Positions 3,001-43,130 of a stretch of DNA of 64,000 bases are shown here, piece after piece. The notes beneath the pieces are model-generated. The model searched no databases and had not been told where the DNA came from. It was given only the letters and a program-made list of their open reading frames with translations. Both the position numbers and the translations under genes were made by a program. Position 1 is the first letter of the stretch, and the number at the start of each line of letters is the position of its first letter. The DNA is taken from positions 686 to 64,685 of IMG/VR virus record IMGVR_UViG_3300031949_000030; one strand, given 5' to 3'. The stretch comes from a virus.

Positions 3001-5938
3001 TGTGGAACCCCTGGCTAGAGAGATGGAGGAGATTAACAAGACCAAGAATCTGGGGGGATATAACCCAAGAATGAGCGTAAGGAAGACTAAGGAGGGAATC
3101 CGTGTAGAGACGACCCGGGTTATTGATGGGAAGAGTAAGGTTATAGTAAGTCCTACAAGAATACTGGAAGTACCCTATAATATACATAAGCATGCTTCTA
3201 ACAACATAGGTAAGCAAACTCTGGGAATAACTGCAGTAGATAACTCTTACAACACTGTCTTTAACAGGATAGGTGCTCACATGAATCCCTTCTATGGAAT
3301 AGGTATAGACCACTACGAGAAACTATCTAAGAAGAATCCTAAGTCTCTTACTAATGAGGAGAGAAGAGACCTTAAGAAGTACCGCAGAATTACCATGATG
3401 CTCAACCACAATAAGGTTAGTTATAAAGGTTATGATATCATATCCCTCTCTCATATATACGATATCACAGGAACTACCAAGATATCAGATGTTATCTCTC
3501 AGCTTATGAATGGGCTCGTAGATATAGAGAAGGATCCCTTTATTCTCTGGCTCCAGATGAACCAGCAGGCGGCACCTACTATTCTATTTATGGTGCAGTC
3601 AGGAGTACCCCTTAAGGATATTATCTACTTTGTCTCCCAACCCCTGGTACGTGAGTACATAGAGCAACAGAAGCTGGCAAGAAGTAGATTTGCGGGACCT
3701 CTGGGAACAGCTCCTGAGGGTAATGTGAACTTCTTCAGGAATAAGGCCAAGCAGGTAGTAATAATGAACCCTAAGTTCAAATTTGGAGTAGAGTCTCTCA
3801 GAGAAACCTTCGGGGACGAACTTTATAAGCTCCAGACAGAGGCTACCGGCAAAGTAGGGGCTTCTGCTTTTACCTTGACAGAACTTGAGAAGAATCTTGA
3901 CAAGCAGGATAGTGACCAGGCACGCGCATACTTCCTCCACTACCTCGAGATTGAGGATATAGCCAAAGGTATAAGAGACCTGAAGATGAACTTCAACTTT
4001 GACACCCGTAAATCAAGTACCAACTTTGACGCCTTTAACAGAGTCAACAAGATAGCAGAAGTTAGAGGTAACAGCCGGATACCTGAGTACCTGGTAGATA
4101 AGATAATGAGTGAATCTATCCCGGGAAGCTTCTTTATACAGAACTTCCAGCTCTCACTATGGAAAGAGTTCTTTAAGCTCAGGAATAACCCGATGCTCAA
4201 TGAATACTTGACTATGAGAATAAAGATGGCTAGCAGAGTCATAAAGATAGAGGGAGAGATTATTCCTAATGATATTGACAAGACCTTCGGGGATGCAGAG
4301 AAGTTTGCTGAAGAGTTCCGCAACGATCTGGTAAGCTATATCTTCCAGAACTCACTAAGACATTTCAGGCTAAGGGATACCAGATCCTACAAAGGATACA
4401 ACACTACCACAGAGTTACCGGTAGAGCAGGTTAGTCTTGCATTCGGGGCTTTTGTGAAGGGTGATACACTTTATGTAGATCCTAAGCAGCTAAAGAAGGA
4501 CTGGGACTCTAAGGCTTTCAATAGTGCAAAGTATGAAGCCCTCGGGTTAGCTAAGGTGCCCGAGAAAGTATTCTCCAACAAGGTTACTAACTCTCAGGAG
4601 GAATTTAACCACTATGTTCTTGAGAGGGAATATCTCCGTAGTATCACCCCCTTCAGAAGTTATACTGCCACACCAGACTATGCAGAGAGGTATACAGAAC
4701 TTCTCTCCTCTGTTGCCAGGAAAGAGACAGAAGAACAGGAAGTATATGAGAAGAGGATATCCAGAAGAGCTTATGAAGAGATGCTCCGTGATACTGCCCT
4801 GGACAATATCATGAATCCTACCAAGCTCTTCTATGGTAATAAGCGGAGTGTAGCCTACACCTTTCTGGATATACTCAAGAAGAACCCTGACTTAAGAAAG
4901 GACTACAGTTTCGTGAGAGCTCTTGCCGTCTCTGATAATGAGAAGATAGGTATGAACAATCTGAAGATCAACGACAGGATACTCGACTCAGATACTCTTG
5001 AACTCTACTATGAGAACATGACCAAGCTTATGGATCCTGCAGTCATCAAGAGTCTGGATACAGAAGAGAACAATCGCATAAGCCAGTTCTTCCAGAGATT
5101 ACCCTTGGTAGCTTTCGTGCAGTCAGGCCTCTCTAAAGGAGAAATGTCTCTTACCCGCATGATGCCGCAGGACATCTTCTTCAGACTTATGGAAGAGCCT
5201 CTAAAGCAGTATGTAGAAAAGATGAATCCTAATATGCTGGATGACTTCTATGGTAAGTTTGTGTATGAGAACTCACTCAAGAGAACCCGCCGCAGGTTCA
5301 AGAACTACCAGGCACCACTTACTCTTAATGATTATTATAGTCTTTATAAGTCAGGAGAGACCAAGGTAGTTACCACAGCACCGGAGCCAGAGCTGACGCC
5401 TTCCAAGAAGGATAATATTTCAACATACAGTAGCTTTGAACCTACAGGTAATAAGAGAGGTATTACTTCCTATAAGAAGCTGGCGGATAATAACCCCGAG
5501 ACACTCTTTATATACAACGAGAACACTAAGTTCACACAGGGACAGACCACTGATGCTTCTCTAAGAGGGTTTAATAACGCACTGGGAATAATCACCAAGC
5601 TGACCGGGGCGGAGAGTCGTGGTGCTATTATGGAGACGGCTAAGTTTACTGATACGACCTATGAGAAGAATATAGCACAGATAGAGGAAGATATCCGGAA
5701 GATTAACGATCTTTACAACAGCGGAAAGTCTATAACCTTCATCAAAGAGGGATACGGGACATACATGATGGAGTCTGCACCACAGACCTTCAACTATCTC
5801 TCCAGAAGACTTTTCGAAGAGTTTGGATATATTAATCCCGGCTCAGATAAAGCAGGTAGTGTGAGGGAACTTATACAGCAGTCTCAGCCTGTAACAGATG
5901 AAGAAGTAGCTAATATTATAGAGAAGTGTTTTGCATAG
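2..5938 (+). CDS. Giant virion-type RNA polymerase-like protein, N-terminally truncated by the window edge; crAss-like vRNAP candidate
   Basis: Listed ORF is 1945 aa from nt 101. The same frame has no stop back to nt 2, so the gene starts upstream of the window. The internal motif 'SGSDFDIDKLTVMMPH' aligns with the cellular RNAP beta-prime catalytic DPBB motif 'NADFDGDQMAVHVP' and keeps all three Asp. The size and position next to a second giant ORF match crAss-like virion RNAP genes. Confidence 0.55.
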   Translation, partial: DNASGYLYVDTAKFLPQYGDRGFELARDIIFGYMEAELERIKIVKTGTYNNIPGFSQRGKEFTVFDNVFSADTKNKLYGIEVPFSTFLQQTDEASMNLKRALNKELKSYFDALIEDTATLLGKAEYVDPTIYNTIREQIGKSDIKGLLREDMKKASIASFTYNSWVHNFETLSLLYGDLALYNTYLKEEFHKRNASIASTGDIPVTDDEDIKFINSVIGRGYSAQLDIPQKDFNGTFDSAVIHDTKVQSAYLPIYTEAFRSYYSRRGLTGEALDNAVEIASGPYKSMNEGDAQGWMSIDSYRILKVLLGKWTPKHEVLYQRVIKGETVYPQEVSTYLAPMKIQYFGPLVNADFNLTALHKFSIIPLIPSVIKGTSLDELHKDMVKQGIDYALMESGSKITTMTTSGIPDKIYLDNNTRILGDVKFTKNTVHLEYLKDQQDINNEFKGNATFSTQLRKLIEEGLFENGVPVDFMAKSSPDVRMDSWSKLSEEKRVQASRMYDLARKYELNVDKLNNLKKYELIKEAGWKQDASGNVIVGSMKNIMEIIRRELTRQDLADHEIDFVELTQQGNIKYDFSIMPNAEKIERLLTAIVNRRLINQKINGEALVQVSGSFFENRSAFSPERFTKPTQEQLDQYGTNDLPTYSLGTSISRKVNIMMQPDNVSKILAGTKTTTTRSSSQASQIDLKKGESGVAEFGGKKFIVTSRGELTIDEAGGKEVMITSEGVKSEENFKFQQTKDWVNGKGKLYVYDIRPYIPGKTKAMKVKIAMQGGFENLLRLPDVYTKADQENITLIEALNLLLKDENWLNTGDNRKFITMVAVRIPVQGLNSMEFMEVHEFLPKEAGNIIIPPSEIVAKSGSDFDIDKLTVMMPHIKTKKGQVMLYSKYSREEATLIYDTMKKRKLFNLTFQGITQEELRRYFNPKIFESIEKTMSDLIGDHYWQSIEEVLTEEGVLTFDQFFYNLNGVRITENELIDNIRSILELPENFVSLIRPNAVDLVEPLAREMEEINKTKNLGGYNPRMSVRKTKEGIRVETTRVIDGKSKVIVSPTRILEVPYNIHKHASNNIGKQTLGITAVDNSYNTVFNRIGAHMNPFYGIGIDHYEKLSKKNPKSLTNEERRDLKKYRRITMMLNHNKVSYKGYDIISLSHIYDITGTTKISDVISQLMNGLVDIEKDPFILWLQMNQQAAPTILFMVQSGVPLKDIIYFVSQPLVREYIEQQKLARSRFAGPLGTAPEGNVNFFRNKAKQVVIMNPKFKFGVESLRETFGDELYKLQTEATGKVGASAFTLTELEKNLDKQDSDQARAYFLHYLEIEDIAKGIRDLKMNFNFDTRKSSTNFDAFNRVNKIAEVRGNSRIPEYLVDKIMSESIPGSFFIQNFQLSLWKEFFKLRNNPMLNEYLTMRIKMASRVIKIEGEIIPNDIDKTFGDAEKFAEEFRNDLVSYIFQNSLRHFRLRDTRSYKGYNTTTELPVEQVSLAFGAFVKGDTLYVDPKQLKKDWDSKAFNSAKYEALGLAKVPEKVFSNKVTNSQEEFNHYVLEREYLRSITPFRSYTATPDYAERYTELLSSVARKETEEQEVYEKRISRRAYEEMLRDTALDNIMNPTKLFYGNKRSVAYTFLDILKKNPDLRKDYSFVRALAVSDNEKIGMNNLKINDRILDSDTLELYYENMTKLMDPAVIKSLDTEENNRISQFFQRLPLVAFVQSGLSKGEMSLTRMMPQDIFFRLMEEPLKQYVEKMNPNMLDDFYGKFVYENSLKRTRRRFKNYQAPLTLNDYYSLYKSGETKVVTTAPEPELTPSKKDNISTYSSFEPTGNKRGITSYKKLADNNPETLFIYNENTKFTQGQTTDASLRGFNNALGIITKLTGAESRGAIMETAKFTDTTYEKNIAQIEEDIRKINDLYNSGKSITFIKEGYGTYMMESAPQTFNYLSRRLFEEFGYINPGSDKAGSVRELIQQSQPVTDEEVANIIEKCFA

Positions 5939-5941
5939 AAT

Positions 5942-8900
5942 ATGGCAGCAGTGTGTCCAAACAAGAGTCTTAACGAGTGGATCAGTCTGGAGAATATCTT
6001 CGGGGAATTTGATGCCCACCGTATATGGATGATGAGTGGTAGGGATTACCCTTCAGTACTCCATGGATCACTCTATCTATATCTACATAACCAACCTGCA
6101 GAGGCTACCTCTGTACTGGAACAATACTATCCCTCAGAGGATATCTCAAGACTTGAATCAAGACCGTCCCTCACATCTGTAATCAGTGGGATGAACTCAG
6201 AGGTCTTTGCTGATAGTAACTACCTTAAGTGGATGCAGGACTCAGGACTATCTCAGAAGGTAGGACTGGACAAAGTCTATAAGAATGATAAGATAACCAA
6301 AGATGGTATCCGGTTTACACAGATCACAGTCCACAATGTGGACACTCCGGAACAAGAACCTACCACTAACTTAGATATAGCAAAGCAGAACAATGCCAGG
6401 GCTAAGGAGATTATAACCCGTCTCTCAGACAGACTCTCACAGAAGTTAGGTATTGAATATGAGATGATATCTCCTGAGGAAGCAGAGAAACTTCTATCTC
6501 CTACTAAGACTCCCTGGAAAGGGGAAAATGCTTTCTTTTTCGGAGGAAGAGTGTATTTTGTAGGTGACAATATTACTACTGAGCAGGTTATTCATGAGTT
6601 CTCACATCCTCTGGTGAGGGCTATTCGTGTAGGTAATAAGGAAGCCTTCAACAATCTCTATAAGGAGCTTGTAAACACTCCTGAAGGACTCCTGCTCATA
6701 GAGGAGACAGTTACTTTATATCCGGAACTCAACAGAGAAGAGGACCTCTTTAAGGAAGAAGTCATAGTAAAAGCTCTCTCCAGAAGTGTAGAGCTAAAGA
6801 ACCTGGGGCAGAAGACTAGCAAGGGTTTCGCAGGATTCATAAAGAACCTCCTGTATAACATCAGACAGATACTGCGCAAGGTATTCGGGAGTAAGGTGAA
6901 AGTAGAAAAACTCTCACCGGAAACTACCATTGAGGAGCTGGCTGCACTACTTCAGGAAGAAGACTTCATTATAGATAATGAACTTGTCACAGATGAGAAT
7001 ATAGCAGCTTTTGTGAGGGACACGCGCAAATATGAGCAAGGACTTAAAGATGTGGAGAAAAGTGTCCTGATAGATAATGTTAACCGGTTCTATGATGTGA
7101 TAAGCAATCACGTGAGAAAGGTACGAGAGAATAAGAACTACGCAGAGATGCGTAAGATCTTGGCAGATGAGATAGGTCAGGGAGACCTTGCCGAGATAAA
7201 GAGTACACTCAGATCCTACCAGACTCTTGAGAATAAGATGGCAGAAGTGGCAGAGAATGCAGAGTTTGAGAGACAGAGAATGCAGGCTCTTATACTGAGT
7301 GTTCTGCGTATGGAGGAAATGATACAGAGGGTGAAGACCCACCTCCTGGAGTTAAAGTCTAAGTCAGATAAGGATAGCTTATATAAAGCATCCTACTACG
7401 GTCACCTGACCAAGAGCTGGAAGAACTTTGTAGAGGAATCTAAGAAAGGCCTCACAGATAGTGGAGTACCGGAGTCAGCCGACTTCTACCAGAAGTTAAG
7501 TAATATATCCTCAGCTATAGACAGCTCGGATCGCATTATCGAGTCTATCTTCAAGCCTGTACTTGCTGAAGTATTTGAAGAGCAGTCTAAGAATCTACAG
7601 GCTCATATAGAAAAAGCTCATAAGGACATTATGGAGCAGCTTCGTAAGAAGGATGCTTCCCAGGCGGAACTTGATAAGGAAGTGAGCAACTACAACCAGG
7701 TAAAGCTAGATAGGTCTAAATTCGAACTTCTCCTGGAAGGAAAGCTCGGAGATGCTAACTTCATGAACTCCTACCTGGAAGGTTACCTCTCTAACAATGA
7801 TCCTGTCATAAACAGCTTTGCACTCTTTATAAAGAACACCAAGGCTGCCGCAGAGTTTTCTGCACAGAAGAAGGTAAACGAGTTTCTCAAGACACTGGAG
7901 CCTCTATATAAAGACGTAGGCTTTAGTGCCACTCGCTTCACAAAGACCAACAAGAAAATGATCTTTGCTGACAAGGACGGGTACGTAGATGATGATGGGA
8001 CATTTAAGGAGAGAATAGTCTTCACCTTCCTTAACAGGTTTAAGAACTATAAGTATGATCTGGAGGCTCTCAGGCACAAGATACAGTCAGCTAAGGAGAA
8101 GCAGGATAAGGATGCCTTGAGAAAGTCCGTGACGGAGATGAAAGAGCTCAGACGTAAGTGGTTTCACCAGGAATATGCTCCGGAGTTTTACGAGAGAGAG
8201 AAGATATTTGAACAGTCTGATCTGGCTATGGAAGCAAGAGATGACAGGCAGAGAATACTGGACGAGATAAATGCTGTCAGGCTGAGTATCTCTGATGAAT
8301 TCTCTATGGCAGAGGCTCAGGAAGAGATAAAAGTTCTGCTGGATGAACTCAGGCAGCTGCATTCTCTCAGAGACCTCGGTGGTAATCTCAAGACCGGTAC
8401 AGAACTCGAGAAAGCACAGATACTAAGACAGTATAGAGAAGAGTCCCGGAAGTTTTATGAGTGGAAGGAGATACCCCAGTCATTTGAGACCTCTCTTAAT
8501 AATTATGAGCAGCAGCTCTTCAACCAGGGGATCATAGGGGAGGATGCCAAAGTTCAGAGAGCTATATGGATACGTAATCATACCAGAACCGTAATTAATG
8601 AGAGGTTCTATGAAGTCAGGTCTTCTATTCTTAACAGGATAAAGGAGATAACTTCTCAGTTACCAGAGGATCAGCAATCCAAGCTGGATATATCAGCCGC
8701 ATGGTCTGACATTATAGATACCGTCTCAGGATTCAGGGATAACGACGGACAACCCGTGGGTAGTGATATGAGTGAAGGAAGAGTAGCTCTCATTAAGCAG
8801 AGGCAGGAAGAGATAATCCAGGCACAGTCTCAGCTTGCAGGTCTCTCGGGACTTACTCTTGAGGAAGTAGACGAGCTTAATGATATATACTCGAAACTAA

Positions 8901-11482
8901 AGAATAAGGAACCGGTCTCCCAGGATGAGAGAGACAGACTTACTGAGCTCTCAGACAAGAGAAGTGAACTTAGTCTTACAAAGTTAGAGAGATCCGAGCT
9001 AAGGTCTCTCTATGCTTCTTTGAGAGAGCTGCAGAGTAAGCAGGCTACAGACTACTACCTTGACATACTGAATAACTGGATGACCAAGCTCAATTCTCCA
9101 AAGCAGGATATCACCAGGGATATCGCTGACGAGTTTCTTAAGGATCCTGTCCTGGAGCAACTGTTAGCATCAGACACTAACTTTCGCAGCTGGTTCCTGA
9201 AGAACCATGTAAAGAGAGAGCGCTATAATCCCGACACACAACAGAAGGAGCCTGTCTGGGAGAGACTTTATGTATGGAATGTTATAGTCCCTAACAATCC
9301 CACCTACTATAAAACTACAAAGCTTTCTACAGGGGAGGTTATAAAAGGTGTACCTACACTTGAGCATTACAGTCGTAATATCAGATCCGAGTTCAGAACC
9401 AAGAAGGTAGTAGGAGAGACCATAGATAATACAGGAGAATGGCTCCCTAAAGATATTAAAGGCAGCCCTTATCTTAATGAGGATTATGACAGGCTAAAAA
9501 GGGAAGATCCTAAACTCTTCAAGTTACTTGAGACTCTTAAGAGTTATCACCTGAAGTTCCAGGAAGGTTTACCTAAGACTTCTAAACTTTATCTGGAGAT
9601 TCCTCGTTTCCGTAAGGACAACCTGGAGTATCTCCAGACTACTAATGTGGCCAAGCAGAAGATGTCTGCTGCAGGATCATACCTCAAATCTATCAAGGAC
9701 TACTTCACACATGCCAAGGATGATGCTGAGGTGGGACTCAATTACGAGCAGAACTTCTCACTGGTAAGTACAGACATGTTCGATAATGAAATCACCCGGA
9801 TACCTATCCGTGGTAAGTATGACCTGGATCTTGATCAGGTTTCGCTCGATATCACTCACTCTATGGCCCGCTATATGTTCTCAGCAGAGAAGCAGAAAGC
9901 ACTCATAGAGATTAACCCCTTAGCTCAGGCTCTTAGCCAGGTAGTCTCTAACCAGGAAGACAATGGTATCAAAGATCTCAAGAAGGTAAATAAGTACAAC
10001 TTCGTAAACAGAGGTATTATTACCTATATGAACAAGAAGGGTAAGGGAGTAAGGCAAGCTGCTGTGAACAATCTTATAGAGAGGGAGCTCTATGGTAAGA
10101 CTGTTACAGGAGTAGGCTCCGGAAGTCCTGTCCTTAACAAAGTGGTAAACTTTATGTTTAGCCGTGCATCCTTTCAGTTCTTTGCCCTGAATATTCCACC
10201 GGCTCTTGTTAATAGATGGTCTGCTATGTACCAGACTATGTTGTCAGCTGCGGCCGGTCAGTATCTTAATCTCAGGGACTATACTAAGGGACGCAAGTGG
10301 TCTACTACAGCTGCAGCAGAGATGAGCCAGCAGATATATAACCCCGGCCCTAAGAGTCTCAAGCTACAAATGCTGGAGATATTCGATCCGGCACAGGGAA
10401 GACTCGAAGAGAAATTCGGAGAAGGACCAAGCAGAAGTATAGCCAGAGATGCAGCAGGATTATCCTGGCTGTATAGTCACAGGAAATGGCTGGAGATAGA
10501 GGCTACCTTCCAGCTCTTCGCGGGAATGATGCATCATGTAAAAGTAGAACAGAAGATAGGAAAGACTACCAAGCAGATCGATTATATAGATGCCTGGGAG
10601 ATCAAAGACGGACAGATACAGCTGAAGGAAGGTATAGACCCTGAGTGGGCAGTAGGAGGAGCTAAATTCTTAGCTCAGAGAAACCGGATGCACGAAGCCT
10701 CCAATCAACTCAACGGATCCTTCGGTAAATTTGATCAACCAGAGGGGCAACGTTACATACTTTACAGGTTTGTGATGTTCCTCAAGAGGTACTTCACCTC
10801 TATGTTTATGCACAGGTTCGCCTTTAATACCAGCACAGGAGGCTCCCGGTATAATATTGCACTAGGCGAAATGACGGAGGGAAGATATATAACTTCCATG
10901 AAGTCGGGAGCAAGGTTAATAAAGACACTAGGGGGTCATAGCTACTACATGACACCCGGTGAGAAAAGAGCTCTCCTGTCTAACGGTATAGAGATAATCA
11001 CCCTTACTCTTATGAATTACATGCTCACCTGGATGTTTGACTGGGATCCAGAAGACGAGGAGAGATTCGAGAAGCTCCGGGCTAAGAGTGGTCCTTTAGG
11101 TGCAGAGGATTTCAAATTCGGAGGATGGATGTCTAATCACTTCCTCTATATGGGTATTAAACTCCGGTCAGAGAACCAGCAGTTTGTGCCTCTGCCAGGA
11201 CTAGGTATGCAAGACCTTATAGCTATGGCAGACCCTACAAGTATTGCCAAAGGACCTACTATAGAGTTAGCCGGACAGGTTCTCACAGATCTCTACAATC
11301 TTACCCTGGGGGTAGAGCGAAAAGCTTACTATCAAAGAGACATAGGTCCTTACTCATGGCAGAAGGAAGGAGCACTTAAGACATGGAACCGTCTGGGAAA
11401 GGCTCTGGGGTTAAGCGGAACATCTGTAGATCCTGTTATGCAGATCAAGAACTTTACTTCTATGCAGGCACTCAAGAGATAA
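5942..11482 (+). CDS. Giant protein (1846 aa) with zincin-like HExxH motif; probable virion or ejected protein
   Basis: Uninterrupted 5.5-kb ORF starting 4 nt after the stop of ORF1. 'VIHEFSHPLVRAI' contains HExxH. The central region is Lys/Glu-rich and looks coiled-coil (aa ~380-1000). The C-terminal half is more hydrophobic and globular. Confidence 0.5.
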   Translation: MAAVCPNKSLNEWISLENIFGEFDAHRIWMMSGRDYPSVLHGSLYLYLHNQPAEATSVLEQYYPSEDISRLESRPSLTSVISGMNSEVFADSNYLKWMQDSGLSQKVGLDKVYKNDKITKDGIRFTQITVHNVDTPEQEPTTNLDIAKQNNARAKEIITRLSDRLSQKLGIEYEMISPEEAEKLLSPTKTPWKGENAFFFGGRVYFVGDNITTEQVIHEFSHPLVRAIRVGNKEAFNNLYKELVNTPEGLLLIEETVTLYPELNREEDLFKEEVIVKALSRSVELKNLGQKTSKGFAGFIKNLLYNIRQILRKVFGSKVKVEKLSPETTIEELAALLQEEDFIIDNELVTDENIAAFVRDTRKYEQGLKDVEKSVLIDNVNRFYDVISNHVRKVRENKNYAEMRKILADEIGQGDLAEIKSTLRSYQTLENKMAEVAENAEFERQRMQALILSVLRMEEMIQRVKTHLLELKSKSDKDSLYKASYYGHLTKSWKNFVEESKKGLTDSGVPESADFYQKLSNISSAIDSSDRIIESIFKPVLAEVFEEQSKNLQAHIEKAHKDIMEQLRKKDASQAELDKEVSNYNQVKLDRSKFELLLEGKLGDANFMNSYLEGYLSNNDPVINSFALFIKNTKAAAEFSAQKKVNEFLKTLEPLYKDVGFSATRFTKTNKKMIFADKDGYVDDDGTFKERIVFTFLNRFKNYKYDLEALRHKIQSAKEKQDKDALRKSVTEMKELRRKWFHQEYAPEFYEREKIFEQSDLAMEARDDRQRILDEINAVRLSISDEFSMAEAQEEIKVLLDELRQLHSLRDLGGNLKTGTELEKAQILRQYREESRKFYEWKEIPQSFETSLNNYEQQLFNQGIIGEDAKVQRAIWIRNHTRTVINERFYEVRSSILNRIKEITSQLPEDQQSKLDISAAWSDIIDTVSGFRDNDGQPVGSDMSEGRVALIKQRQEEIIQAQSQLAGLSGLTLEEVDELNDIYSKLKNKEPVSQDERDRLTELSDKRSELSLTKLERSELRSLYASLRELQSKQATDYYLDILNNWMTKLNSPKQDITRDIADEFLKDPVLEQLLASDTNFRSWFLKNHVKRERYNPDTQQKEPVWERLYVWNVIVPNNPTYYKTTKLSTGEVIKGVPTLEHYSRNIRSEFRTKKVVGETIDNTGEWLPKDIKGSPYLNEDYDRLKREDPKLFKLLETLKSYHLKFQEGLPKTSKLYLEIPRFRKDNLEYLQTTNVAKQKMSAAGSYLKSIKDYFTHAKDDAEVGLNYEQNFSLVSTDMFDNEITRIPIRGKYDLDLDQVSLDITHSMARYMFSAEKQKALIEINPLAQALSQVVSNQEDNGIKDLKKVNKYNFVNRGIITYMNKKGKGVRQAAVNNLIERELYGKTVTGVGSGSPVLNKVVNFMFSRASFQFFALNIPPALVNRWSAMYQTMLSAAAGQYLNLRDYTKGRKWSTTAAAEMSQQIYNPGPKSLKLQMLEIFDPAQGRLEEKFGEGPSRSIARDAAGLSWLYSHRKWLEIEATFQLFAGMMHHVKVEQKIGKTTKQIDYIDAWEIKDGQIQLKEGIDPEWAVGGAKFLAQRNRMHEASNQLNGSFGKFDQPEGQRYILYRFVMFLKRYFTSMFMHRFAFNTSTGGSRYNIALGEMTEGRYITSMKSGARLIKTLGGHSYYMTPGEKRALLSNGIEIITLTLMNYMLTWMFDWDPEDEERFEKLRAKSGPLGAEDFKFGGWMSNHFLYMGIKLRSENQQFVPLPGLGMQDLIAMADPTSIAKGPTIELAGQVLTDLYNLTLGVERKAYYQRDIGPYSWQKEGALKTWNRLGKALGLSGTSVDPVMQIKNFTSMQALKR

Positions 11483-15483: not shown

Positions 15484-16045
15484 TATTCTTAACCTCCAAA
15501 CCTTTCAGCTCTACCTGTAGTGTTTCTTTATCAACATCTGGTCTGTCACATAGCTCTCCGGCTATCTTCAGGTCGCGCATGCTACATTTTAGCAGGTCTG
15601 AGTATATAGCAAAGTACTTCTCAGGATGTACATAACTACACACATAAGCGTAGTTTCTGTCCTGACCCCTGAAGTACTCCTTTATCTTTGACTTGACCGG
15701 CTCAGAGAGCTTTGAATATCTTCCGTTGAGGAAGTGTTCCCAGTCTCCGGCATATTTACTAAGGTCAAAGGTATATACAGCTCTTCTCTCAGTTACCTCG
15801 TGATAACTTTCAAAGAGTGTATTCTCCAGTAACATCTTCCGTTCGAAGGTCCTGAAATCAGGATCCTCCCTCCGATAGTAGAGACATACCAGTCTCCTAT
15901 CTGCAGGCTTTATCGTTCCCTCCCAGCCTATGTAAGACTGAATAGGAATGATACTACCTCGTTTGATACCCAGTACAGGGAACAGAAATACCCTGCTCTT
16001 CTGGAAGTATTCAGCATAAATCTTCTTGATCACACCATTAGACAT
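15473..16045 (-). CDS. Hypothetical protein (190 aa)
   Basis: ORF. It overlaps its neighbour by 11 nt, which suggests translational coupling. Confidence 0.4.
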   Translation of the reverse strand: MSNGVIKKIYAEYFQKSRVFLFPVLGIKRGSIIPIQSYIGWEGTIKPADRRLVCLYYRREDPDFRTFERKMLLENTLFESYHEVTERRAVYTFDLSKYAGDWEHFLNGRYSKLSEPVKSKIKEYFRGQDRNYAYVCSYVHPEKYFAIYSDLLKCSMRDLKIAGELCDRPDVDKETLQVELKGLEVKNIVS

Positions 16046-16057
16046 AAGGTTTTTAGT

Positions 16058-17083
16058 TTACAGTACAACAATACCCTCTGCGAACTTACGTGGCAGAGTA
16101 AAGTCACGCTTGACATAGTGATAAGAGGCATCATCCAGGACATCAGAAGTTTTCAGATTCCACTCTCTCATACTCTCGTTAGTTACACCGAAGCAGTAGA
16201 CTTGGTTGCTGATATCTATAACTATAAAGTGGAACACCATTGTCCAGTCCTTCTCACCTCCGGTAAACTTTTCTACATTGAAGGCTACCAGCTTACTATA
16301 GATCACAGCCTGCATCCAGTATCTGTAGTACTCTAGACTTTCTGGAAATTCGGCTATAGTCTTGCTTGTTCTCTTAACATCATTTATGTATAAGGTCTTA
16401 GTGGAAGCCCCTGCACGCAGATTATCCAATATACCCTTAATTCCAAAACTTCTCCCCGGAAGATCTGCCTCCAGATATAGTTCATTCCAGACTCCGGAAG
16501 GGGGTTCCCCGCAACCGAGTCCCAGTAGTTCACAGGCTTTCGGGTTCATTCTTATAGCCTCCTTAGCATCCATAGCTCTCTGCATCATCTCCATATCCAC
16601 GATATTCTTCGTGTCACGTATTTTAAGGTAGTCAAAGTAAGCGGAGTTCTCATCAGTCACTATCTTCTCTATCCTTTGTGCATCTGTACCTAAAGACTGG
16701 TAAAGGTTTATCTCCTCCAGCACCTCAAGTATCTTTTCTCCGAAGCCCGAGAGGACCTCTTCTGCCGTACCTATCTCTTGCTCCAGGAGTTTCCGGTACT
16801 CAATATATATCCTATCCACCACCTTCTTTGGATTCTCCGAAGGTAGTTTAGTCTGTGAAAGCACAAACTGCTCTGAGAACTTCTCCTCATCCAACAGCAG
16901 ACAGTGGGTAAGCTTTCCTTCTATAAGGTGCTTATCCAGTTTCTCTACTCTTCGCCTAAGTACATAGTGCTTATAAAACATAGAGGGAGAATATAAAAGT
17001 TTGTTAAGACCTGAGTAGGAGAACAGGAATCTCTCACTATAGAACTGGTCTTCAGCCTTTCTTTTATCCAAGGTCTCTATCAT
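16058..17083 (-). CDS. PD-(D/E)xK nuclease, RecB/Cas4-like exonuclease
   Basis: 'GIKGILDNL' (D motif), then 'LYINDVKRTSK' ((D/E)xK), then 'YWMQAVIY' (the QxxxY motif typical of RecB-family nucleases). Confidence 0.5.
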   Translation of the reverse strand: MIETLDKRKAEDQFYSERFLFSYSGLNKLLYSPSMFYKHYVLRRRVEKLDKHLIEGKLTHCLLLDEEKFSEQFVLSQTKLPSENPKKVVDRIYIEYRKLLEQEIGTAEEVLSGFGEKILEVLEEINLYQSLGTDAQRIEKIVTDENSAYFDYLKIRDTKNIVDMEMMQRAMDAKEAIRMNPKACELLGLGCGEPPSGVWNELYLEADLPGRSFGIKGILDNLRAGASTKTLYINDVKRTSKTIAEFPESLEYYRYWMQAVIYSKLVAFNVEKFTGGEKDWTMVFHFIVIDISNQVYCFGVTNESMREWNLKTSDVLDDASYHYVKRDFTLPRKFAEGIVVL

Positions 17084-18141
17084 AACTTCTCCTCCCCGAA
17101 TATCTCTACACAGTTAGAGCAGCTTTCCTTCACAAGCTTCCTGCCGGATTCACTAAGGGTGATCTTCCCTATAATAAAGTGCTCCTGATGAAGGATTCTG
17201 TTAACGTCACGCTTAACATGATCCATAAAGACCCTGTAGCTGTCCTTGGTCATCAGCTTTTTACTTACCATTGTTTCAAGGGCACTATCTACTGTCATCC
17301 TGTAGTTTATTCCCAAGTAAGTCTTCATAGCTGTAAAGTTAACATGACTATGGTTCCTATGCTGGAATATCTTGTCCTTGAACTCCAGACACAGACTCAT
17401 GAGATAGACTGCAGACTTTACGTAGTCACTATTAGCCATAATTTCCATAGCTACGGCCCAGTTCCCCGAATCCTCACTCTTAAACATGGCAGATAACCTG
17501 CCACAAATCTCCTCATCTATTACAGTAGCCCCCTCGTTGATCAGAGAGAGTATGCTGTCTTCATGATAGGACACACCTGCAAAATTAGGTAGTGTATCTT
17601 CTGATGGCAGCTTCACCCAACGACCATAATTATAGTCACCATGAGCAGAAAAGTTAGTAAGTACCCAACTAGAATTACCCGTGAAGACTACGTAAGGGAC
17701 CTCTGTATTATTCATTTCACTCAACAGCAAATCACGCTGCCTGATATCTATCGTAGAACTACAGGACAGAGAGTTAACCCACTTACCATATACCTCTTTA
17801 GTTATATAAAAAGCCCGGAAGCTGGGGAAGCTCTTATCTATATAATCTCCTCCGATTATTATTACATCAGCGTCCTCCCGTGACTTTACAAGTCTGACAT
17901 CTGATCGCTTACACCACTCCCTTAGCTTTACCTGGGGTATATGGTGGTCCTTCAAGAGCAGGATTTTATCTCCGGCTTTTGGTATATAACATGAGCTCTG
18001 CCCGGATATATAAGCATTAATATCAGGGTCAGGCGTCTTGTAGACAGTGACTATCTCAGTCTCTACCTCTACCGGAGTAGTGGTGACATCGATGTTAGTC
18101 ACATAGAGCATAGACACAAAGTCCTCTCTCTTCATTTGCAT
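17080..18141 (-). CDS. Hypothetical protein (353 aa) with weak metallophosphoesterase-like motifs
   Basis: 'LLLKDHH', 'VIIIGGDYID' (GDxxD-like), 'VVFTGNSSW' (GNH-like) and 'SAHGDYNYG' sit in the order expected for calcineurin-like phosphoesterases. The spacing was not verified. Confidence 0.3.
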   Translation of the reverse strand: MQMKREDFVSMLYVTNIDVTTTPVEVETEIVTVYKTPDPDINAYISGQSSCYIPKAGDKILLLKDHHIPQVKLREWCKRSDVRLVKSREDADVIIIGGDYIDKSFPSFRAFYITKEVYGKWVNSLSCSSTIDIRQRDLLLSEMNNTEVPYVVFTGNSSWVLTNFSAHGDYNYGRWVKLPSEDTLPNFAGVSYHEDSILSLINEGATVIDEEICGRLSAMFKSEDSGNWAVAMEIMANSDYVKSAVYLMSLCLEFKDKIFQHRNHSHVNFTAMKTYLGINYRMTVDSALETMVSKKLMTKDSYRVFMDHVKRDVNRILHQEHFIIGKITLSESGRKLVKESCSNCVEIFGEEKL

Positions 18142-18197: not shown

Positions 18198-19400
18198 TTA
18201 CTTAATAGTTAACTTGATCACGTCCTTATTATCGAGCAGTTTCTGAAACTTCTGCTTATTACCTGTGAAGAGACGCTTGACAAAGATGTACTTCAGATCG
18301 TGCTCTATCATATCTTCTTCAGTGATAAAGCGGATGAGTCTGCTTATGATATCACTGGTTATAGAGTTGTCCTCTGCATGCAACAGCGCAAAGTTAGCAG
18401 TCCTGGTTATAATAGTACTTGCAATATCAGCTCTGTATTTTCCTCCCTTCTTACCTACACATGACCTTATAGAGGCCATGATGTTGTCTTCGTTCTTACC
18501 AAGCAGGATTTCTGCAGGGGTAATAATTCTGTCCAGGCGGTTATTGATAAAGGCAGTAAACATAGAGCTTATATCCGGACCTACACTTCCCTCTCCCAAC
18601 ATCTGGATAAGAGGAAGCTCCGCATCAAAGTCCTTGATAGAACTGATGTTATTAAAGAAGGTCGTAATACTTCTCGGGTTCACTGCATGATTACCATCTT
18701 TACTCACGATTTCAGGATTCAGAAGTACGAAGTTTATACACCGTGTATCAATCTTCTCTCTGTCAGCCCACTCGGACCATACTTTCGCGTCGAACTTCAT
18801 ATTCACACTTGTAAACCTGCTCTTCTGGGCAGGATCGAGTTCATTCACCAGGTAGTTACCATCAGAGGGGTTACTGGTGAGGATAACAGTCCATCCCCTG
18901 GGAAGTTTCCAAGAGAGATACTCCTGTCTCTGTACAAGTTCCATGGTTGCCTGAATAAATCTTTCTGATGCACGGCTGTAATCATCTAACATAAGTATAC
19001 CCCCTCCTTCACGACCTTGTATCCACTCCGGGATAGCATATCCCATCCTTTTCTCACCTGTAGGCTTAAACTTCTGGTCGATATACTTTGGCACAGCTGA
19101 CTCAGGTATCCACCGTGTTTCTCCCACATCATTCTTCACTTCAAGCTCTTTATGGGGATATCCTACAAGATTCTCTACTTCCTCAAGCTGGCTCAGGTTT
19201 AGCTTCACACAGTGGAGGTTAAACTCCTCTGCCATCTGTATAATCACACTGGTCTTCCCAAGACCGGCAGGACCTACCACCTCCAGTGCACCCGCAGGTT
19301 TATTGTTCTCCTGAAGGAACTTATTGTTGTTTATCATATGCCTGATCACGTCCTTCAGCTCGGTAACGTTCAGGGCTACTACTGTTTTGGCTTTACTCAT
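18198..19400 (-). CDS. MoxR-like AAA+ ATPase (pair 1)
   Basis: Walker A 'VVGPAGLGKTSV'. Walker B 'GGILMLDDYSRA'. Sits immediately downstream of a VWA protein. Confidence 0.65.
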   Translation of the reverse strand: MSKAKTVVALNVTELKDVIRHMINNNKFLQENNKPAGALEVVGPAGLGKTSVIIQMAEEFNLHCVKLNLSQLEEVENLVGYPHKELEVKNDVGETRWIPESAVPKYIDQKFKPTGEKRMGYAIPEWIQGREGGGILMLDDYSRASERFIQATMELVQRQEYLSWKLPRGWTVILTSNPSDGNYLVNELDPAQKSRFTSVNMKFDAKVWSEWADREKIDTRCINFVLLNPEIVSKDGNHAVNPRSITTFFNNISSIKDFDAELPLIQMLGEGSVGPDISSMFTAFINNRLDRIITPAEILLGKNEDNIMASIRSCVGKKGGKYRADIASTIITRTANFALLHAEDNSITSDIISRLIRFITEEDMIEHDLKYIFVKRLFTGNKQKFQKLLDNKDVIKLTIK

Positions 19401-19411
19401 CGTACTACTTA

Positions 19412-20647
19412 TTAGTTAAGTTTGATCTTATGACCTATAAGGTCTTCATTAATTGTGCTCTTGGTACTATGTACCCAAAGAGTTCTCAGTCTACAGGGTT
19501 CTGGAGCAGGGGCACATCCATCAGTCAGGTAGATAAGGCAGGTGTATTTCTTGGAGTGCTCGTTAGCGTAATCAATCACAGGATCAAATGCAGTTCCTCC
19601 ACGACCTTTCACCTTGATCTCCTGGTTCCTCTTGTATCTCTCCACACTACTTATAGCAGCATCGCACTGTATCACCGTTACATCTGACCCTGTTCTGTGG
19701 ATATGGTCTATTTCCTGGAAGAACTCCACGAGCTCCTCCTGGGATACTGACCCGCTGGTATCAACTGCTACCAGTACATGATTCTTGGATTTCACTCTCA
19801 GCCCGGGGGCATCATCGAACTTTTTGTTGAGCTTAGTCCGGACTTTCTTAGTATAGGTCCTGATAGACCCTCCGGCAAATCTCCTAAGGTAACCCTTCCA
19901 GTCAAACTTAGGTGGCTCATACTTGTTGAGGTTCTTAAGGTATTCAGCTAATTCCGATGGAATAGTTCCCCTGCTCTTCTCTACCTGTTCAGCTACCTCT
20001 GACATGAGGTGATCTATGTGACTCTTCAGGAGCTTCTTCTCAGCTTCTCCCAGCTTGTTGATAGCCTCCCACATGGAATGATCCGGCACACCTACCCCCT
20101 CCCCATTCTCGCCTTTGACTATGATGACCACAGGATTCCCGTCTTTGTCTTTCCCTTCACCATTCTTTATGGCATCAAGAATAGCACTCAGGGTCTTGGA
20201 AGCATTCTTCTGTGCAGCATCGTTAAGCTTATCATAGTAGTACTGTGTACCTTTATGAGGCTCTAGTTTAAGTGTAGGAAAACTAGAGGGCAGTATCGGG
20301 TTAGGAGGGAGATCGTTAATATCAATCAGCTGGTTAATCTCACAGTCCATAGCCAGATTAGCTACCTGGTGATTCTCCAGATGTCTCCAGTCAGTTACGT
20401 GAAAGAAGCACATGTGCATTAATTCGTGAGTGATTAAACCTTTGTGTTGGCGGTCACTAAGTTTTGCCCAGTACTCTTCATTAAGACCCAGTTCATACTG
20501 TATACCTCTTTGATACACTCCTGCGGTGGGGAGGTCTTTCCGCCACCGTTTATTAAGCATACAGGAGAAGAGACCATAGAAAGGCTGCTCCAGTAACAGA
20601 TCTTTGCAGGCTCTCGCCAGGCTCTCGTCTTTATCCATTGTTAGCAT
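19412..20647 (-). CDS. VWA-domain protein with N-terminal HExxH metallopeptidase-like motif (DUF2201-like; pair 1)
   Basis: 'THELMHMCFFH' (HExxH). MIDAS motif 'VAVDTSGSVSQEEL' (DxSxS). Confidence 0.6.
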   Translation of the reverse strand: MLTMDKDESLARACKDLLLEQPFYGLFSCMLNKRWRKDLPTAGVYQRGIQYELGLNEEYWAKLSDRQHKGLITHELMHMCFFHVTDWRHLENHQVANLAMDCEINQLIDINDLPPNPILPSSFPTLKLEPHKGTQYYYDKLNDAAQKNASKTLSAILDAIKNGEGKDKDGNPVVIIVKGENGEGVGVPDHSMWEAINKLGEAEKKLLKSHIDHLMSEVAEQVEKSRGTIPSELAEYLKNLNKYEPPKFDWKGYLRRFAGGSIRTYTKKVRTKLNKKFDDAPGLRVKSKNHVLVAVDTSGSVSQEELVEFFQEIDHIHRTGSDVTVIQCDAAISSVERYKRNQEIKVKGRGGTAFDPVIDYANEHSKKYTCLIYLTDGCAPAPEPCRLRTLWVHSTKSTINEDLIGHKIKLN

Positions 20648-21107
20648 CTTTAAAGGTTACTTTCATCTGTAGTCTCTTTACAAACTCATAACCACCCATA
20701 TCTGCGATATGTGTGAGCAGGAAGTTTCCAAAGTGATCCAGGATAGGCTGTGTATCCTCCTCAGAAATACCTGCCTTAGGTAAAACTGACTGGAAGAGGG
20801 TATTAAGAGTCAGGGGAGCATTCATAGCCACTCCCAGGCTCTTGAGCTTCTTGGAAACCTTCGGGGCTTCCTTCTCCCATACTTCTCCTGCCAGTACTGA
20901 ATTCATCCTCAGCAGGAGGATATGAACGATAGATTGATCATGACTACTGTTTTCGATGCAGGTAAGACCTATAGAGCAGTCTCCCTGATCACTTGAATCC
21001 AGCATCTTCAGGATACGCTCGTAGTCTTCACGGCCTATCACTGCTTTTTCTGAGGTTACTGTGTCCTTCTTCATTGTTCTTGGATTTTTAAGGTTCGGCG
21101 TGCCCAT
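20631..21107 (-). CDS. Hypothetical protein (158 aa)
   Basis: ORF. Confidence 0.35.
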   Translation of the reverse strand: MGTPNLKNPRTMKKDTVTSEKAVIGREDYERILKMLDSSDQGDCSIGLTCIENSSHDQSIVHILLLRMNSVLAGEVWEKEAPKVSKKLKSLGVAMNAPLTLNTLFQSVLPKAGISEEDTQPILDHFGNFLLTHIADMGGYEFVKRLQMKVTFKDANNG

Positions 21108-27313: not shown

Positions 27314-27571
27314 CTAGCCGGTATACTTCTGCTTTACTTCCTGAAATACTACAGGCTGCTCTATTGACCCGAAACGCTCTATGAGACTCACAGCCTCCTT
27401 CACAGGGAACTTAGCTCCCCAGTCCAGGATAATCCGCAGAGTATCTATCATCTCACTGTTACCCTCTCCGTGTCCTATATAAGCCTTAGGTCGTCCCTCA
27501 GTGGTAACCATAAGCACTATTCCTACAGTCTTTGTGGAAGTGAACCACACTACTCCTAATACTTTACTCAT
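27314..27571 (-). CDS. Hypothetical protein (85 aa)
   Basis: ORF. Confidence 0.35.
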   Translation of the reverse strand: MSKVLGVVWFTSTKTVGIVLMVTTEGRPKAYIGHGEGNSEMIDTLRIILDWGAKFPVKEAVSLIERFGSIEQPVVFQEVKQKYTG

Positions 27572-28125
27572 TTGTTACATGCTATTAATAACATTGTGAA
27601 TTCCCTGCGAGGTCTGATAGTATAGATAGATACTCTGTTTCTAAGTAACCACTTTATCTCTCTGTGTCGTCCCTTACCTCTATAGATAATTTTTATGTCT
27701 CTGTCTGTAAAGTTCACAAGTGATCTGGGAGACTCCTGATATCGGAGCCTGCAGTAATCTATAGTATCCTTAAACTCTCTGACTCTAAAAAGTTTGGAGG
27801 CAGTACACCTATCAACATTTAGCCGCCAGGCAGAATATAGATCCCTGATCAATATTAAATGCAAGATTATGAGTAAAGGTTCTCTGCTTTCCAGATGTGT
27901 GAGACTTTTTATCAGATGTAACATATCATGCCTACTCACAGTACCTATAAGAGTATGTGCAGTAGTGTTCTTACCTCTACCAAGTAATATGGTGAGAAAA
28001 GGTACTCTCAGACCCGCGTCTGCAAGTGCTTCTACCAGATCCTTTTTGTAAGTCACAGTCTTCCACCCGGAGCTCTTAGTCTTCGGGCTGAGATTCTTCT
28101 TGTGGCTGTACTTATGAATAATCAT
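27568..28125 (-). CDS. Hypothetical protein (185 aa), basic
   Basis: ORF. Confidence 0.35.
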   Translation of the reverse strand: MIIHKYSHKKNLSPKTKSSGWKTVTYKKDLVEALADAGLRVPFLTILLGRGKNTTAHTLIGTVSRHDMLHLIKSLTHLESREPLLIILHLILIRDLYSAWRLNVDRCTASKLFRVREFKDTIDYCRLRYQESPRSLVNFTDRDIKIIYRGKGRHREIKWLLRNRVSIYTIRPRREFTMLLIACNK

Positions 28126-28536
28126 GGTCGTAGTATAAATAGTTTATCAGAGGCTCTTGTGTAGGCCGTATACTTGATTCGGTTACGCTCCACTATCCTC
28201 TTATTGTAGTCAAGGTCTTCCTCAAGGAGAAAGACGTTCTTGTAAGTCGAACCTTGCGGTTCTTCCTCTACCTTTTAGTAGAGGCCGGACTATATCTTAT
28301 GTCGTATCTACTCATAGTCAGCAGAGTGATACACAACATCTAACTGTTTCGAGCAATGATTATGCTCTACTCCCTTACGGGATAGTCTCTGAACCTTCAT
28401 CCTGTATTCAGGATGCTTGGCTGCGGATTGTCCAATCTCTATCTCTTTTACTAGGCTACAGTCATTACTGCTGTAGAGAGTGTGTAGAGCTCTAAGGATG
28501 TCCCCGTCAATTAAGTTAGTTTTACAAGACCCAAAG

Positions 28537-29892
28537 TTAAGCCTTGTGCACAGTAATAGCATAGTTATATTTCACCTGTGCAAACTCCCTCATGAAGTTG
28601 AAGTAGTTAATCCAGGATCCATTAGCTCCCGCACTCGCAATGGCTTTAGCCTTCAGTATTGAGAGTTCTGCTACATAGAGCCCGTGACTATCTTTATGCA
28701 GCACCCTAATAGTATCCTCCACATTAGTACCCTCACAGGTATTACACCTGATTCGGCACTCGTACGTCTTAAAGATCTTAGTTATCCCGAGTCTGTAGGG
28801 AGTGTGACTTCCTACTCTTACATCCAGGACTTCAAATTCATCAGAGGTATTAAACTTCACTCTCTGCTTAGCTCCATCATCAAGGATAGGTTTATCAGTT
28901 ATGAGCCAGTCTCCCTTAACTAACTCAGGCGTGTCTTTACCAAAGCGTATCTCCCGGATGATAGAATTCATAGAGCCTACCGTCTTATTACGCCAGGCAA
29001 GTACCTTTGCATAATTAGGATCTCTCTCAAACTGCCAGCAGTCAAAGTAGTCCTTGAGTAGTCCTCTGAGCCGGTCTCTCTCTGACTGATGTTTACTGTC
29101 AAGCCAGAATACACCGTTACCCTTAGAGTCAACCTCTATAGGTAAAAGCTTGGTTACAGGTTGTTCTGCACCCAGGTAAGTACGAATGGTAGTAGACAAT
29201 CTCACTATGGGATTATCCTGCTCCTGTCTCATTATCTGTGTGAGCTTCTCACGTACAAAGTAATATCCATCCTGGGATACCCCCGTGTCCTTCTTAAGAG
29301 GTATACAGTCCATCCTGTTCACAGGAGGTATCTGGCACCGGTCTCCCAGGAAGATGATATGTATACTGTCAGCATACTTGATCAGTTCTTTAAATAAGGA
29401 GTCATCCAGCATACTAACCTCATCCACGATAAGGACCCTGAAGTTATTGATCACACATCTATCAGCTTTCTTCTGCACGAAGAGTTGTTCACCCTTATCT
29501 GTGATTTCCTCGGTGAGTCCCAGGAGCTTATGTATAGTCATGAAAGCTACGCTATTCATGGACTCATCGAGCCTGCTGGCCCTATACAGAACATTCACTG
29601 CCTTATTGGTAGGAGCGGTCATAGCTATCTGCCAGCGTTTGTGAGTCCGGGTAATAAAGTTTACCAGCTTACTTATGAGAAAGGTTTTTCCCGTGCCTGC
29701 GTATCCCTCTATGACAATACTGGTATTTTTTACGGCATATCTCTGCTCTTGGGGAGAGATATACTTCTTTAGACGACTATAGATGGCAGCTTGCTCCTGA
29801 TTCATCCCATTAGATATGAGTAGCTCACTCTCCCTGATCATCTTCAGCATAGGATCTATAGATCTCTTCTTCATTACCACTGTATTTTGCAT
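28537..29892 (-). CDS. SF1B helicase, Dda/RecD/Pif1-like; C-terminus possibly truncated
   Basis: Walker A 'GYAGTGKTFLI'. Motif Ia 'MTAPTNKAV'. Walker B 'LIVDEVSMLD'. The ORF stops right after 'ITVHKA', where motif VI 'TVHKxQG' is expected. Confidence 0.6.
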   Translation of the reverse strand: MQNTVVMKKRSIDPMLKMIRESELLISNGMNQEQAAIYSRLKKYISPQEQRYAVKNTSIVIEGYAGTGKTFLISKLVNFITRTHKRWQIAMTAPTNKAVNVLYRASRLDESMNSVAFMTIHKLLGLTEEITDKGEQLFVQKKADRCVINNFRVLIVDEVSMLDDSLFKELIKYADSIHIIFLGDRCQIPPVNRMDCIPLKKDTGVSQDGYYFVREKLTQIMRQEQDNPIVRLSTTIRTYLGAEQPVTKLLPIEVDSKGNGVFWLDSKHQSERDRLRGLLKDYFDCWQFERDPNYAKVLAWRNKTVGSMNSIIREIRFGKDTPELVKGDWLITDKPILDDGAKQRVKFNTSDEFEVLDVRVGSHTPYRLGITKIFKTYECRIRCNTCEGTNVEDTIRVLHKDSHGLYVAELSILKAKAIASAGANGSWINYFNFMREFAQVKYNYAITVHKA

Positions 29893-32953: not shown

Positions 32954-33030
32954 GCTCCCCCTGAAGGACTCGAACCTCCGTCTCCTGGCCATTGGCTGCC
33001 AAGCACTCTCACCACTGAGCTAAGAGGAAG
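32954..33030 (-). tRNA. tRNA with atypical (8-10 nt) anticodon loop; identity unresolved
   Basis: Minus-strand sequence CTTCCTC-TT-AGCTCAGTGGTGAGAGT-G-CTTGG-CAGCCAATGG-CCAGG-AGAC-GGAGG-TTCGAGT-CCTTC-AGGGGGAG. The acceptor stem pairs. The D-arm reads AGCTCAGTGGTGAGAGT and the T-arm GGAGG/TTCGAGT/CCTTC. The anticodon stem CTTGG/CCAGG encloses an oversized loop, or a 6-bp stem encloses the 8-nt loop AGCCAATG. No CCA is encoded. Confidence 0.6.
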
Positions 33031-43127: not shown

Positions 43128-43130
43128 AGA

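Follow-up and report, generated by a model that had tools for sequence, protein, structure and literature searches.

An N4 gp24/gp25-type pair of MoxR-like ATPase and zincin-VWA genes in the replication block of an uncultivated tailed phage

The characterised MoxR-VWA machines CbbQ-CbbO, NorQ-NorD, RavA-ViaA and midasin, which serve here as the model for mechanism (PMC7159879), combine an AAA+ ATPase with a VWA adaptor to which no peptidase is fused. Two described phage systems are closer to the locus considered here. The gp24 and gp25 genes of coliphage N4 (Schitoviridae) belong to the 14-gene core of N4-like phages and are middle genes with no assigned function (PMC4193335; PMC2784036), and group 2.2 jumbo phages have been described as encoding a MoxR-vWA pair whose vWA protein bears a metallopeptidase at its N terminus (Iyer et al. 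2021, Viruses 13:63; PMC7824862). We have analysed a gene pair (VWA1 and AAA1, together pair 1) at 18198-20647 of a 64,000-nucleotide stretch, hereafter the window, which covers positions 686 to 64,685 of IMG/VR virus record IMGVR_UViG_3300031949_000030 and derives from an uncultivated tailed phage of ~126 kb. Pair 1, two closely linked genes that form a module of the N4 gp25/gp24 class, is an intact, divergent copy of a gene pair already known from N4-like and many other phages.

Architecture of the pair and its relation to N4 gp24/gp25

The interval 18198-20647 is made up of exactly two adjoining minus-strand open reading frames (ORFs), VWA1 and then AAA1. Their features, in window positions, are as follows (aa, amino acids; MIDAS, metal-ion-dependent adhesion site; AF2, AlphaFold2 model).

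19412-20647, minus strand: VWA1, ORF of 411 aa, zincin-VWA protein (ORF list, Pfam, PHROG)
19874-20629, minus strand: VWA1 residues 7-258, N-terminal putative metallopeptidase domain (DUF2201_N)
20399-20428, minus strand: VWA1 residues 74-83, HELMHMCFFH (HExxHxxxxH), zinc-binding/catalytic motif
19451-19774, minus strand: VWA1 residues 292-399, C-terminal VWA-like domain (DUF2201)
19748-19762, minus strand: VWA1 residues 296-300, MIDAS motif DTSGS, the site being completed by T352 and D376
19401-19411, minus strand: spacer of 11 nucleotides separating the stop codon of VWA1 from the start codon of AAA1 (sequence)
18198-19400, minus strand: AAA1, ORF of 400 aa, MoxR-like (AAA_5) AAA+ ATPase of N4 gp24 type
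19251-19274, minus strand: AAA1 residues 43-50, Walker A motif GPAGLGKT
18981-18998, minus strand: AAA1 residues 135-140, Walker B motif ILMLDD, with DD in place of the canonical DE
19035-19160, minus strand: AAA1 residues 81-122, β-rich helix-2 insert between β2 and β3 (AF2)
18201-18788, minus strand: AAA1 residues 205-400, all-helical lid and C-terminal extension (AF2)

We assigned VWA1 to the DUF2201/N4 gp25-type zincin-VWA family as defined by Pfam PF13203 and PF09967 and by PHROG 1314. It matched Pfam DUF2201_N (E 7.7e-12; 45.8 bits, cut-off 23.2), the DUF2201 VWA-like domain (E 1.8e-18; 67.3 bits, cut-off 26.4), PhageMetallopep (E 1.9e-6) and PHROG 1314 (E 2.4e-60). AAA1 passed the Pfam AAA_5 cut-off by a modest margin (27.1 bits against 22) and matched PHROG 1297 ‘ATPase’ at E 4.6e-34; the family scores of both proteins are far above chance. 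NCBIfam gave no family-level match for VWA1 or AAA1. The initial annotation had described a MoxR-like AAA+ ATPase beside a DUF2201-type protein combining an HExxH zincin with a MIDAS-bearing VWA domain, and Pfam, PHROG and the motifs agree on this composition.

The Walker and MIDAS motifs that it had pointed out hold in alignments as well. Across 76 aligned VWA1 homologues the zincin residues H74, E75, H78 and H83, the first three of them within HELMH at residues 74-78, are invariant, as are D101 and the MIDAS residues D296, T297, S298, S300, T352 and D376; DxSxS is retained by all 137 representatives of distant homologues (137/137). Likewise, 60 aligned AAA1 homologues share G46, G48, K49 and T50 of Walker A, D139 and D140 of Walker B, N177 (sensor 1) and the arginines R195 and R243. 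All elements of the AAA+ core are thus present in AAA1: Walker A, Walker B, sensor 1 (N177) and the arginine finger (R195).

Searches of cultured phages with tblastn placed VWA1 in a family annotated as ‘N4 gp25-like’ in Pseudomonas phage LUZ7 and found also in N4-like phages, Bacillus phage G, Moorella phage MTATph1, cyanophage S-TIM54 and others, and AAA1 matched, in these phages, the adjacent genes annotated as ‘ATPase’ or ‘MoxR-like ATPase’. In BLASTP, VWA1 aligned with N4 gp25 over its full length (3e-11), and AAA1 with N4 gp24 over the first 230 residues (2e-11), similarity being undetectable past residue ~230. N4 gp24 is itself an AAA_5-like ATPase, and N4 gp25 (locus L004, 2165-3307) scores 3.1e-87 with DUF2201_N and 1.4e-46 with DUF2201. 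The two-protein architecture and the adjacency of the genes are common to N4 and pair 1; gp25 has, like VWA1, both DUF2201 domains, a MIDAS site and an HExxHxxxxH motif of identical spacing (HELWHVGLLH).

The two pairs are nevertheless only ~22-24% identical, and the C-terminal helical region of AAA1, ~170 aa in length, is divergent from gp24. By sequence comparison, pair 1 has two local peculiarities, namely its DD Walker B and a gene order inverted relative to N4. The ATPase gene precedes the VWA gene in N4-like, Moorella and S-TIM54 phages, whereas VWA1 precedes AAA1 here; gp24 keeps LDE in Walker B, whereas DD is found in at least 114 of 120 clade homologues of AAA1. The jumbo-phage pair of Iyer et al. 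(2021), compared by its description, has the architecture of pair 1 and is likewise a phage module; the genome that carries pair 1, at ~126 kb, is not of jumbo size, and its context is one of replication, in contrast to the assembly role inferred by those authors. The window phage itself is not an N4-like virus: no cultured phage has a DNA polymerase more than 34% identical to its own. At the DNA level, the region had no match among 50,697 phage records.

The AF2 models agree with these assignments. VWA1 (predicted local distance difference test score, pLDDT, 84) has a predicted C-terminal VWA fold, and its zincin domain had no solved structural relative among the structural matches listed. 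The model of AAA1 (pLDDT 89) shows, besides the helix-2 insert, a short hairpin ahead of the sensor-1 strand β4, a predicted pre-sensor-1 β-hairpin. MoxR, midasin and the chelatases make up the helix-2-insert/pre-sensor-1 clade of AAA+ proteins, and the modelled topology of AAA1 is that of this clade. Clamp loaders, by AAA+ classification, lack both inserts. A clamp-loader identity of AAA1, raised by weak RFC matches in NCBIfam and PHROG 168, was rejected on the strength of these inserts in the model and of the linked VWA partner.

Sequence searches of PDB returned only weak P-loop matches to ClpA for AAA1 alone and nothing meaningful for VWA1, either as a single sequence or as a profile. The AAA1 family profile reached midasin AAA modules at 1.8e-11, in the P-loop region only. 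The helix-2 insert is a variable site among AAA1 orthologues; two of them (P0150 and P0199) have a low-complexity, K/E/V-rich expansion of ~95 aa at its tip, corresponding to residues ~85-92 of the window protein.

Conservation and genomic context

The family is very large. It is a core pair both of N4-like phages and of the abundant uncultivated lineage to which the window belongs. Database searches yielded more than 4,000 homologues of VWA1 and ~2,600 of AAA1, the closest (source contig excluded) being ~55% identical; many lie on contigs of 115-133 kb. At E <=1e-3, the A1 profile collected 20,566 cluster representatives (clusters at 50% identity).

Pair 1 lies inside a long minus-strand replication and recombination block, whose genes are given here in order of transcription.

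Block start, minus strand: Dda-like helicase, Sak4-like annealing protein, primase, RuvC-like resolvase, DUF6878 protein, DUF6915 protein
Block continued, minus strand: 158-aa ORF, VWA1, AAA1, 353-aa ORF, PD-(D/E)XK exonuclease, two small ORFs, family-A-like DNA polymerase

From primase to DNA polymerase this order is essentially invariant in 80 related IMG/VR loci, in which AAA follows VWA wherever downstream sequence exists. Pfam and PHROG scans of the neighbours recognised no capsid or tail genes near pair 1. From the tight 11-nucleotide spacing, we infer co-transcription or operon-like coupling of VWA1 and AAA1. A scan of the 12-27 kb block for promoters and terminators found a number of sites not above that in shuffled sequence. 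We conclude that pair 1 is a core module conserved by vertical descent.

More distant homologues were followed in bacterial and archaeal assemblies, where an adjacent AAA gene, in either order, was found at 43 of 80 genome loci. The HExxH motif was kept in 32 of 35 AAA-paired homologues against 19 of 36 solo ones, in what is a small sample with heuristic gene calls. This points to a link between the peptidase function and the ATPase partner.

Solo chromosomal homologues of VWA1, ~30% identical to it, were seen in Saprospiraceae, Cytophagales and Chitinophagales on contigs of up to 2.2 Mb. These genes (L094, L095, L114, L122, L123, L129, L135 and others) stand among housekeeping-type genes with no adjoining AAA+ gene. 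About half of the solo chromosomal homologues are without HExxH, and all have DxSxS.

The surroundings of the pair in cultured phages vary. In the Moorella phage, the gene order is ATPase, VWA, hypothetical protein, helicase; in N4, the pair is ahead of dCTP deaminase, which is followed by further nucleotide-metabolism and replication genes.

Two ORFs flank pair 1 in the window.

20631-21107, minus strand: p158, ORF of 158 aa, overlapping the VWA1 start by 17 nucleotides
17080-18141, minus strand: p353, ORF of 353 aa, 56 nucleotides downstream of AAA1

In many clade loci p158 is conserved upstream of the pair, and in nearly all of them p353 is conserved downstream; both are candidate members of the module. 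Searches of Pfam, PHROG, PDB and phages gave no match for either p158 or p353, and a third component of pair 1 was accordingly not recognised.

In at least two relatives (L010, 7220-9488; L028, 2407-4635), a group I intron (Rfam RF00028, 55.7 and 58.4 bits, respectively; gathering score 50) splits the AAA1 orthologue directly after Walker B (…LILDDYTRAD). The intron of L010 carries a GIY-YIG/NUMOD1 homing endonuclease recognised by Pfam, while the ORF in L028 was assigned from a sequence motif only. The same element may be present in L012, L040, L057, L064 and L081, which have large gaps between VWA and AAA; AAA1 of the window is uninterrupted by an intron. Homing intron elements typically target conserved sites of important genes, and we count the insertion at Walker B toward the importance of AAA1.

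Possible roles of the pair

On balance, we favour the view that pair 1 encodes a putative, cytoplasmic adaptor-protease together with its MoxR ATPase, acting in remodelling and cleavage of a target protein during the replication or takeover phase. By analogy with the characterised machines, AAA1 would form a ring on which VWA1 docks as the adaptor, the MIDAS metal capturing an acidic ligand, a carboxylate, on the target protein. ATP-driven motion would then pull on the target or remodel it, and the fused zincin would cleave it, which would make the pair an ATP-dependent protease with a target chosen by the adaptor. Such a target could be a host or phage protein that has to be removed or matured for replication. 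The model is transferred with clear differences: the similarity of pair 1 to those machines is confined to the P-loop core, the fused peptidase sets VWA1 apart from their adaptors, and their substrates (Rubisco, NOR, Frd and pre-60S factors) are irrelevant to a phage.

Timing and target are the weakest step of this proposal. We favour the replication or takeover phase because of the fixed synteny of the replication block here and the middle-gene status of the pair in N4; late virion assembly appears less likely. The window offers in this respect a comparative argument for a replication-phase over an assembly role, built on the fixed synteny and on the covariation of HExxH with the ATPase partner.

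Several points weigh against the proposal. The literature on the family in phages offers annotation or inference and no experiment, and virion assembly is the role put forward by Iyer et al. (2021; PMC7824862). Motif conservation is what indicates a zincin activity of VWA1, and the literature contains no member of the zincin-VWA family assayed for zinc-dependent peptidase activity. The DD Walker B of AAA1 could make ATP hydrolysis slow or switch-like. Moreover, the replication context is not universal: in cyanophage S-TIM54 the order is Hsp20, MoxR, VWA and, ~240 bp downstream, a virion protein, and in Bacillus phage G the ATPase gene is ~5 kb from the VWA gene. Published essentiality papers, based on CRISPR interference through antisense RNA targeting (CRISPRi-ART) or on transposons, have no data on N4 gp24/gp25 or their relatives.

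An assembly role is a serious rival, if in our judgement a less likely one. Under it, the pair would be a chaperone and co-chaperone of virion assembly, with the fused peptidase processing structural proteins, as proposed for jumbo phages by Iyer et al. (2021), who took p618 and p892 of Acidianus two-tailed virus as their analogues (PMC7824862). MoxR and vWA proteins of that virus are implicated in tail development (PMC7824862; PMC7159879), and the S-TIM54 pair adjoins Hsp20 and a virion structural gene. Against this stand the position of the pair between primase/resolvase and exonuclease/DNA polymerase genes across the 80 loci, the expression class of N4 gp24/gp25, which are middle and not late genes, and the lack of recognised capsid or tail genes near pair 1.

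We consider it rather unlikely that pair 1 is a replication-coupled machine for protein removal, a phage analogue of the eukaryotic SPRTN or Wss1 protease with Cdc48/p97. Such a machine might strip away and cleave DNA-bound or cross-linked proteins, or a specific factor of the host nucleoid or replisome, and so clear the way for the phage replisome. It would explain the fixed place in the replication block, the status as a middle-phase core gene pair in N4-like phages and the tendency of homologues without an ATPase partner to lose HExxH.

A counter-defence or conflict module is more doubtful still. The pair would in that case destroy host immunity proteins, or act as a phage-borne exclusion system resembling the ternary, NTP-dependent vWA-MoxR conflict systems (Kaur et al. 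2020), which exist in bacteria together with effector peptidases (PMC7159879); phage ArdC-like and SprT-like zincins have been suggested to target host proteins (PMC7824862), and the window contains a second, accessory MoxR-VWA pair. This framing, put forward in the initial annotation, fared poorly: the sole PADLOC match, to DolB at 2.9e-5, had no passing stretch and is not meaningful, and no VMAP, FtsH, β-propeller or effector domain was recognised in the neighbours. Pair 1 belongs instead to a vertically conserved core set, as judged by the 14-gene core of N4-like phages, the fixed synteny and the similar divergence of both partners. This core-gene pattern is unlike that of fast-turnover defence and anti-defence genes, and a conflict role is disfavoured on that ground.

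An auxiliary metabolic pair for metal chelation or cofactor insertion, of the CobS/CobT type also suggested at the outset (or of the BchI/BchD or NorQ/NorD type), is highly improbable, and the domain composition led us to reject it. Phage genes called CobS/CobT-like (PHROG 249 and PHROG 17276) belong to the same broad AAA+/VWA superclass; pair 1 has no meaningful match to them, PHROG 249 being reached at 1.1e-5 only and with no passing stretch. AAA1 has no NCBIfam CobS match, the A2 profile reaches CobS at E 0.027 only, the VWA partner bears a zincin domain that chelatase subunits lack, and the neighbours of the pair are replication genes, not cofactor genes. Of the original description, therefore, the architecture stood and the CobS/CobT and conflict framing did not; the identity with N4 gp24/gp25 and the account of Iyer et al. 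(2021) had been missed.

That the VWA gene encodes an HNH endonuclease, for which a database label (PHROG 1314 and many GenBank and RefSeq records) is the only argument, was rejected and deserves virtually no credence, as neither VWA1 nor N4 gp25 has an HNH Pfam domain and DUF2201_N, DUF2201, HExxH, MIDAS and the predicted VWA fold refute it. The label, shown here to be wrong for the family, is carried by the RefSeq entry of N4 gp25, by Bacillus phage G gp576 and by dozens of records from Vibrio, Pseudomonas and other phages, and looks like a systematic misannotation in PHROG 1314.

The copy in the window is, as such, an ordinary one. It adds no new principle, and the function of the family is no more testable here than in the N4 or LUZ7 orthologues.

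The second MoxR-VWA pair and other features of the window

The window harbours a second, non-identical AAA+/VWA pair (pair 2) at 41703-44057, in the opposite gene order, as originally noted.

43131-44057, minus strand: pair 2 AAA+ protein, 308 aa, midasin/MoxR-like, with canonical DE Walker B
41703-43127, minus strand: pair 2 VWA protein, 474 aa, with MIDAS motif DESGS and no HExxH

The ATPase matched AAA_5 (3.9e-11) and PHROG 249 (7.6e-23), and its family profile reached midasin at 1e-44, CbbQ at 2.5e-7 and CobS at 3e-6; pair 2 thus matches the CobS/CobT-like phage families and is nearer to the AAA modules of midasin. The VWA protein matched PHROG 17276 ‘CobT’ (2.5e-6) and, under its cut-off, Pfam VWA (4.8e-4). 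Pair 2 missed the CobS and CobT cut-offs (TIGR01650, 28.1 bits against 558.55; CobT_C, E 0.084). Matches to bpMoxR were confined to the pair 2 ATPase and stayed below the cut-off (14.5 bits against 27).

The initial annotation had left open two independent acquisitions or an ancient duplication. BLASTP aligned AAA1 with the pair 2 ATPase at 4e-5, in the Walker A region only, and found no significant similarity between the VWA proteins (E 0.49). Profile-profile comparison of the two ATPase families gave a probability of 32% (E 4.7e-4), restricted to the P-loop core, and the proteins of pair 1 and pair 2 fall into different PHROGs. A recent duplication was ruled out by BLASTP and profile-profile comparison. 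We conclude from these sequence comparisons that pair 2 is a MoxR-VWA module of another kind and of greater mobility, and that the pairs were acquired independently and are not duplicates. One phage can, then, carry two unrelated MoxR-VWA machines, and since the two AAA/VWA pairs are unrelated, they are not to be lumped together as “CobS/CobT-like”.

Relatives of pair 2 occur in phages of other types (a 482-kb contig, Bacteroides phage BS162P1 and crAss-like phages), and the AAA-to-VWA order is kept in L165 and L166. A scan for its relatives in IMG/VR with a single protein found none. In L003, a relative of the window phage, the DNA polymerase is directly followed, at 15641-17200, by an AAA_5/bpMoxR ATPase of a third kind, 364 aa long, and then by an ORF of 467 aa; this ATPase is similar to that of pair 2 at E 0.002 only. 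As L003 carries this different AAA_5 gene, the second MoxR module varies in type and position within the lineage.

As to the host, a Bacteroidota affiliation of the window phage is hinted at by the lack of a Shine-Dalgarno-like motif in the spacer of pair 1 and by the Bacteroidota affinities of pair 2. Close relatives L085-L088, on contigs of 25-120 kb, are found in metagenome-assembled genomes labelled Bathyarchaeia, Micavibrio, Rickettsiales and Pseudomonadales. They are probably phage contigs mis-binned into taxonomically inconsistent genomes, and for this reason such labels are unreliable as an indication of the host.

A few further elements of the window deserve mention. Two consecutive giant ORFs on the plus strand (101-5938, 1945 aa; 5942-11482, 1846 aa), the strand opposite to that of the replication block, had no PHROG match. 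For a tRNA gene at 32954-33029 on the minus strand (Rfam tRNA, 45.2 bits), ARAGORN gave the identity as undetermined and the anticodon as ‘ccaa’, of four bases; the tRNA may be frameshift-suppressor-like, or its anticodon loop may be unusual. A group I catalytic intron at 28266-28611 on the minus strand (RF00028, 67.8 bits; gathering score 50) overlaps the 3' end of the Dda-like helicase ORF (28537-29892, minus strand; PHROG 325, 1.4e-65), so that this gene appears to be intron-interrupted; the 185-aa ORF downstream of the intron (27568-28125) had no Pfam match. The sign of the GC skew switches at ~12 kb, where the strands of the window diverge.

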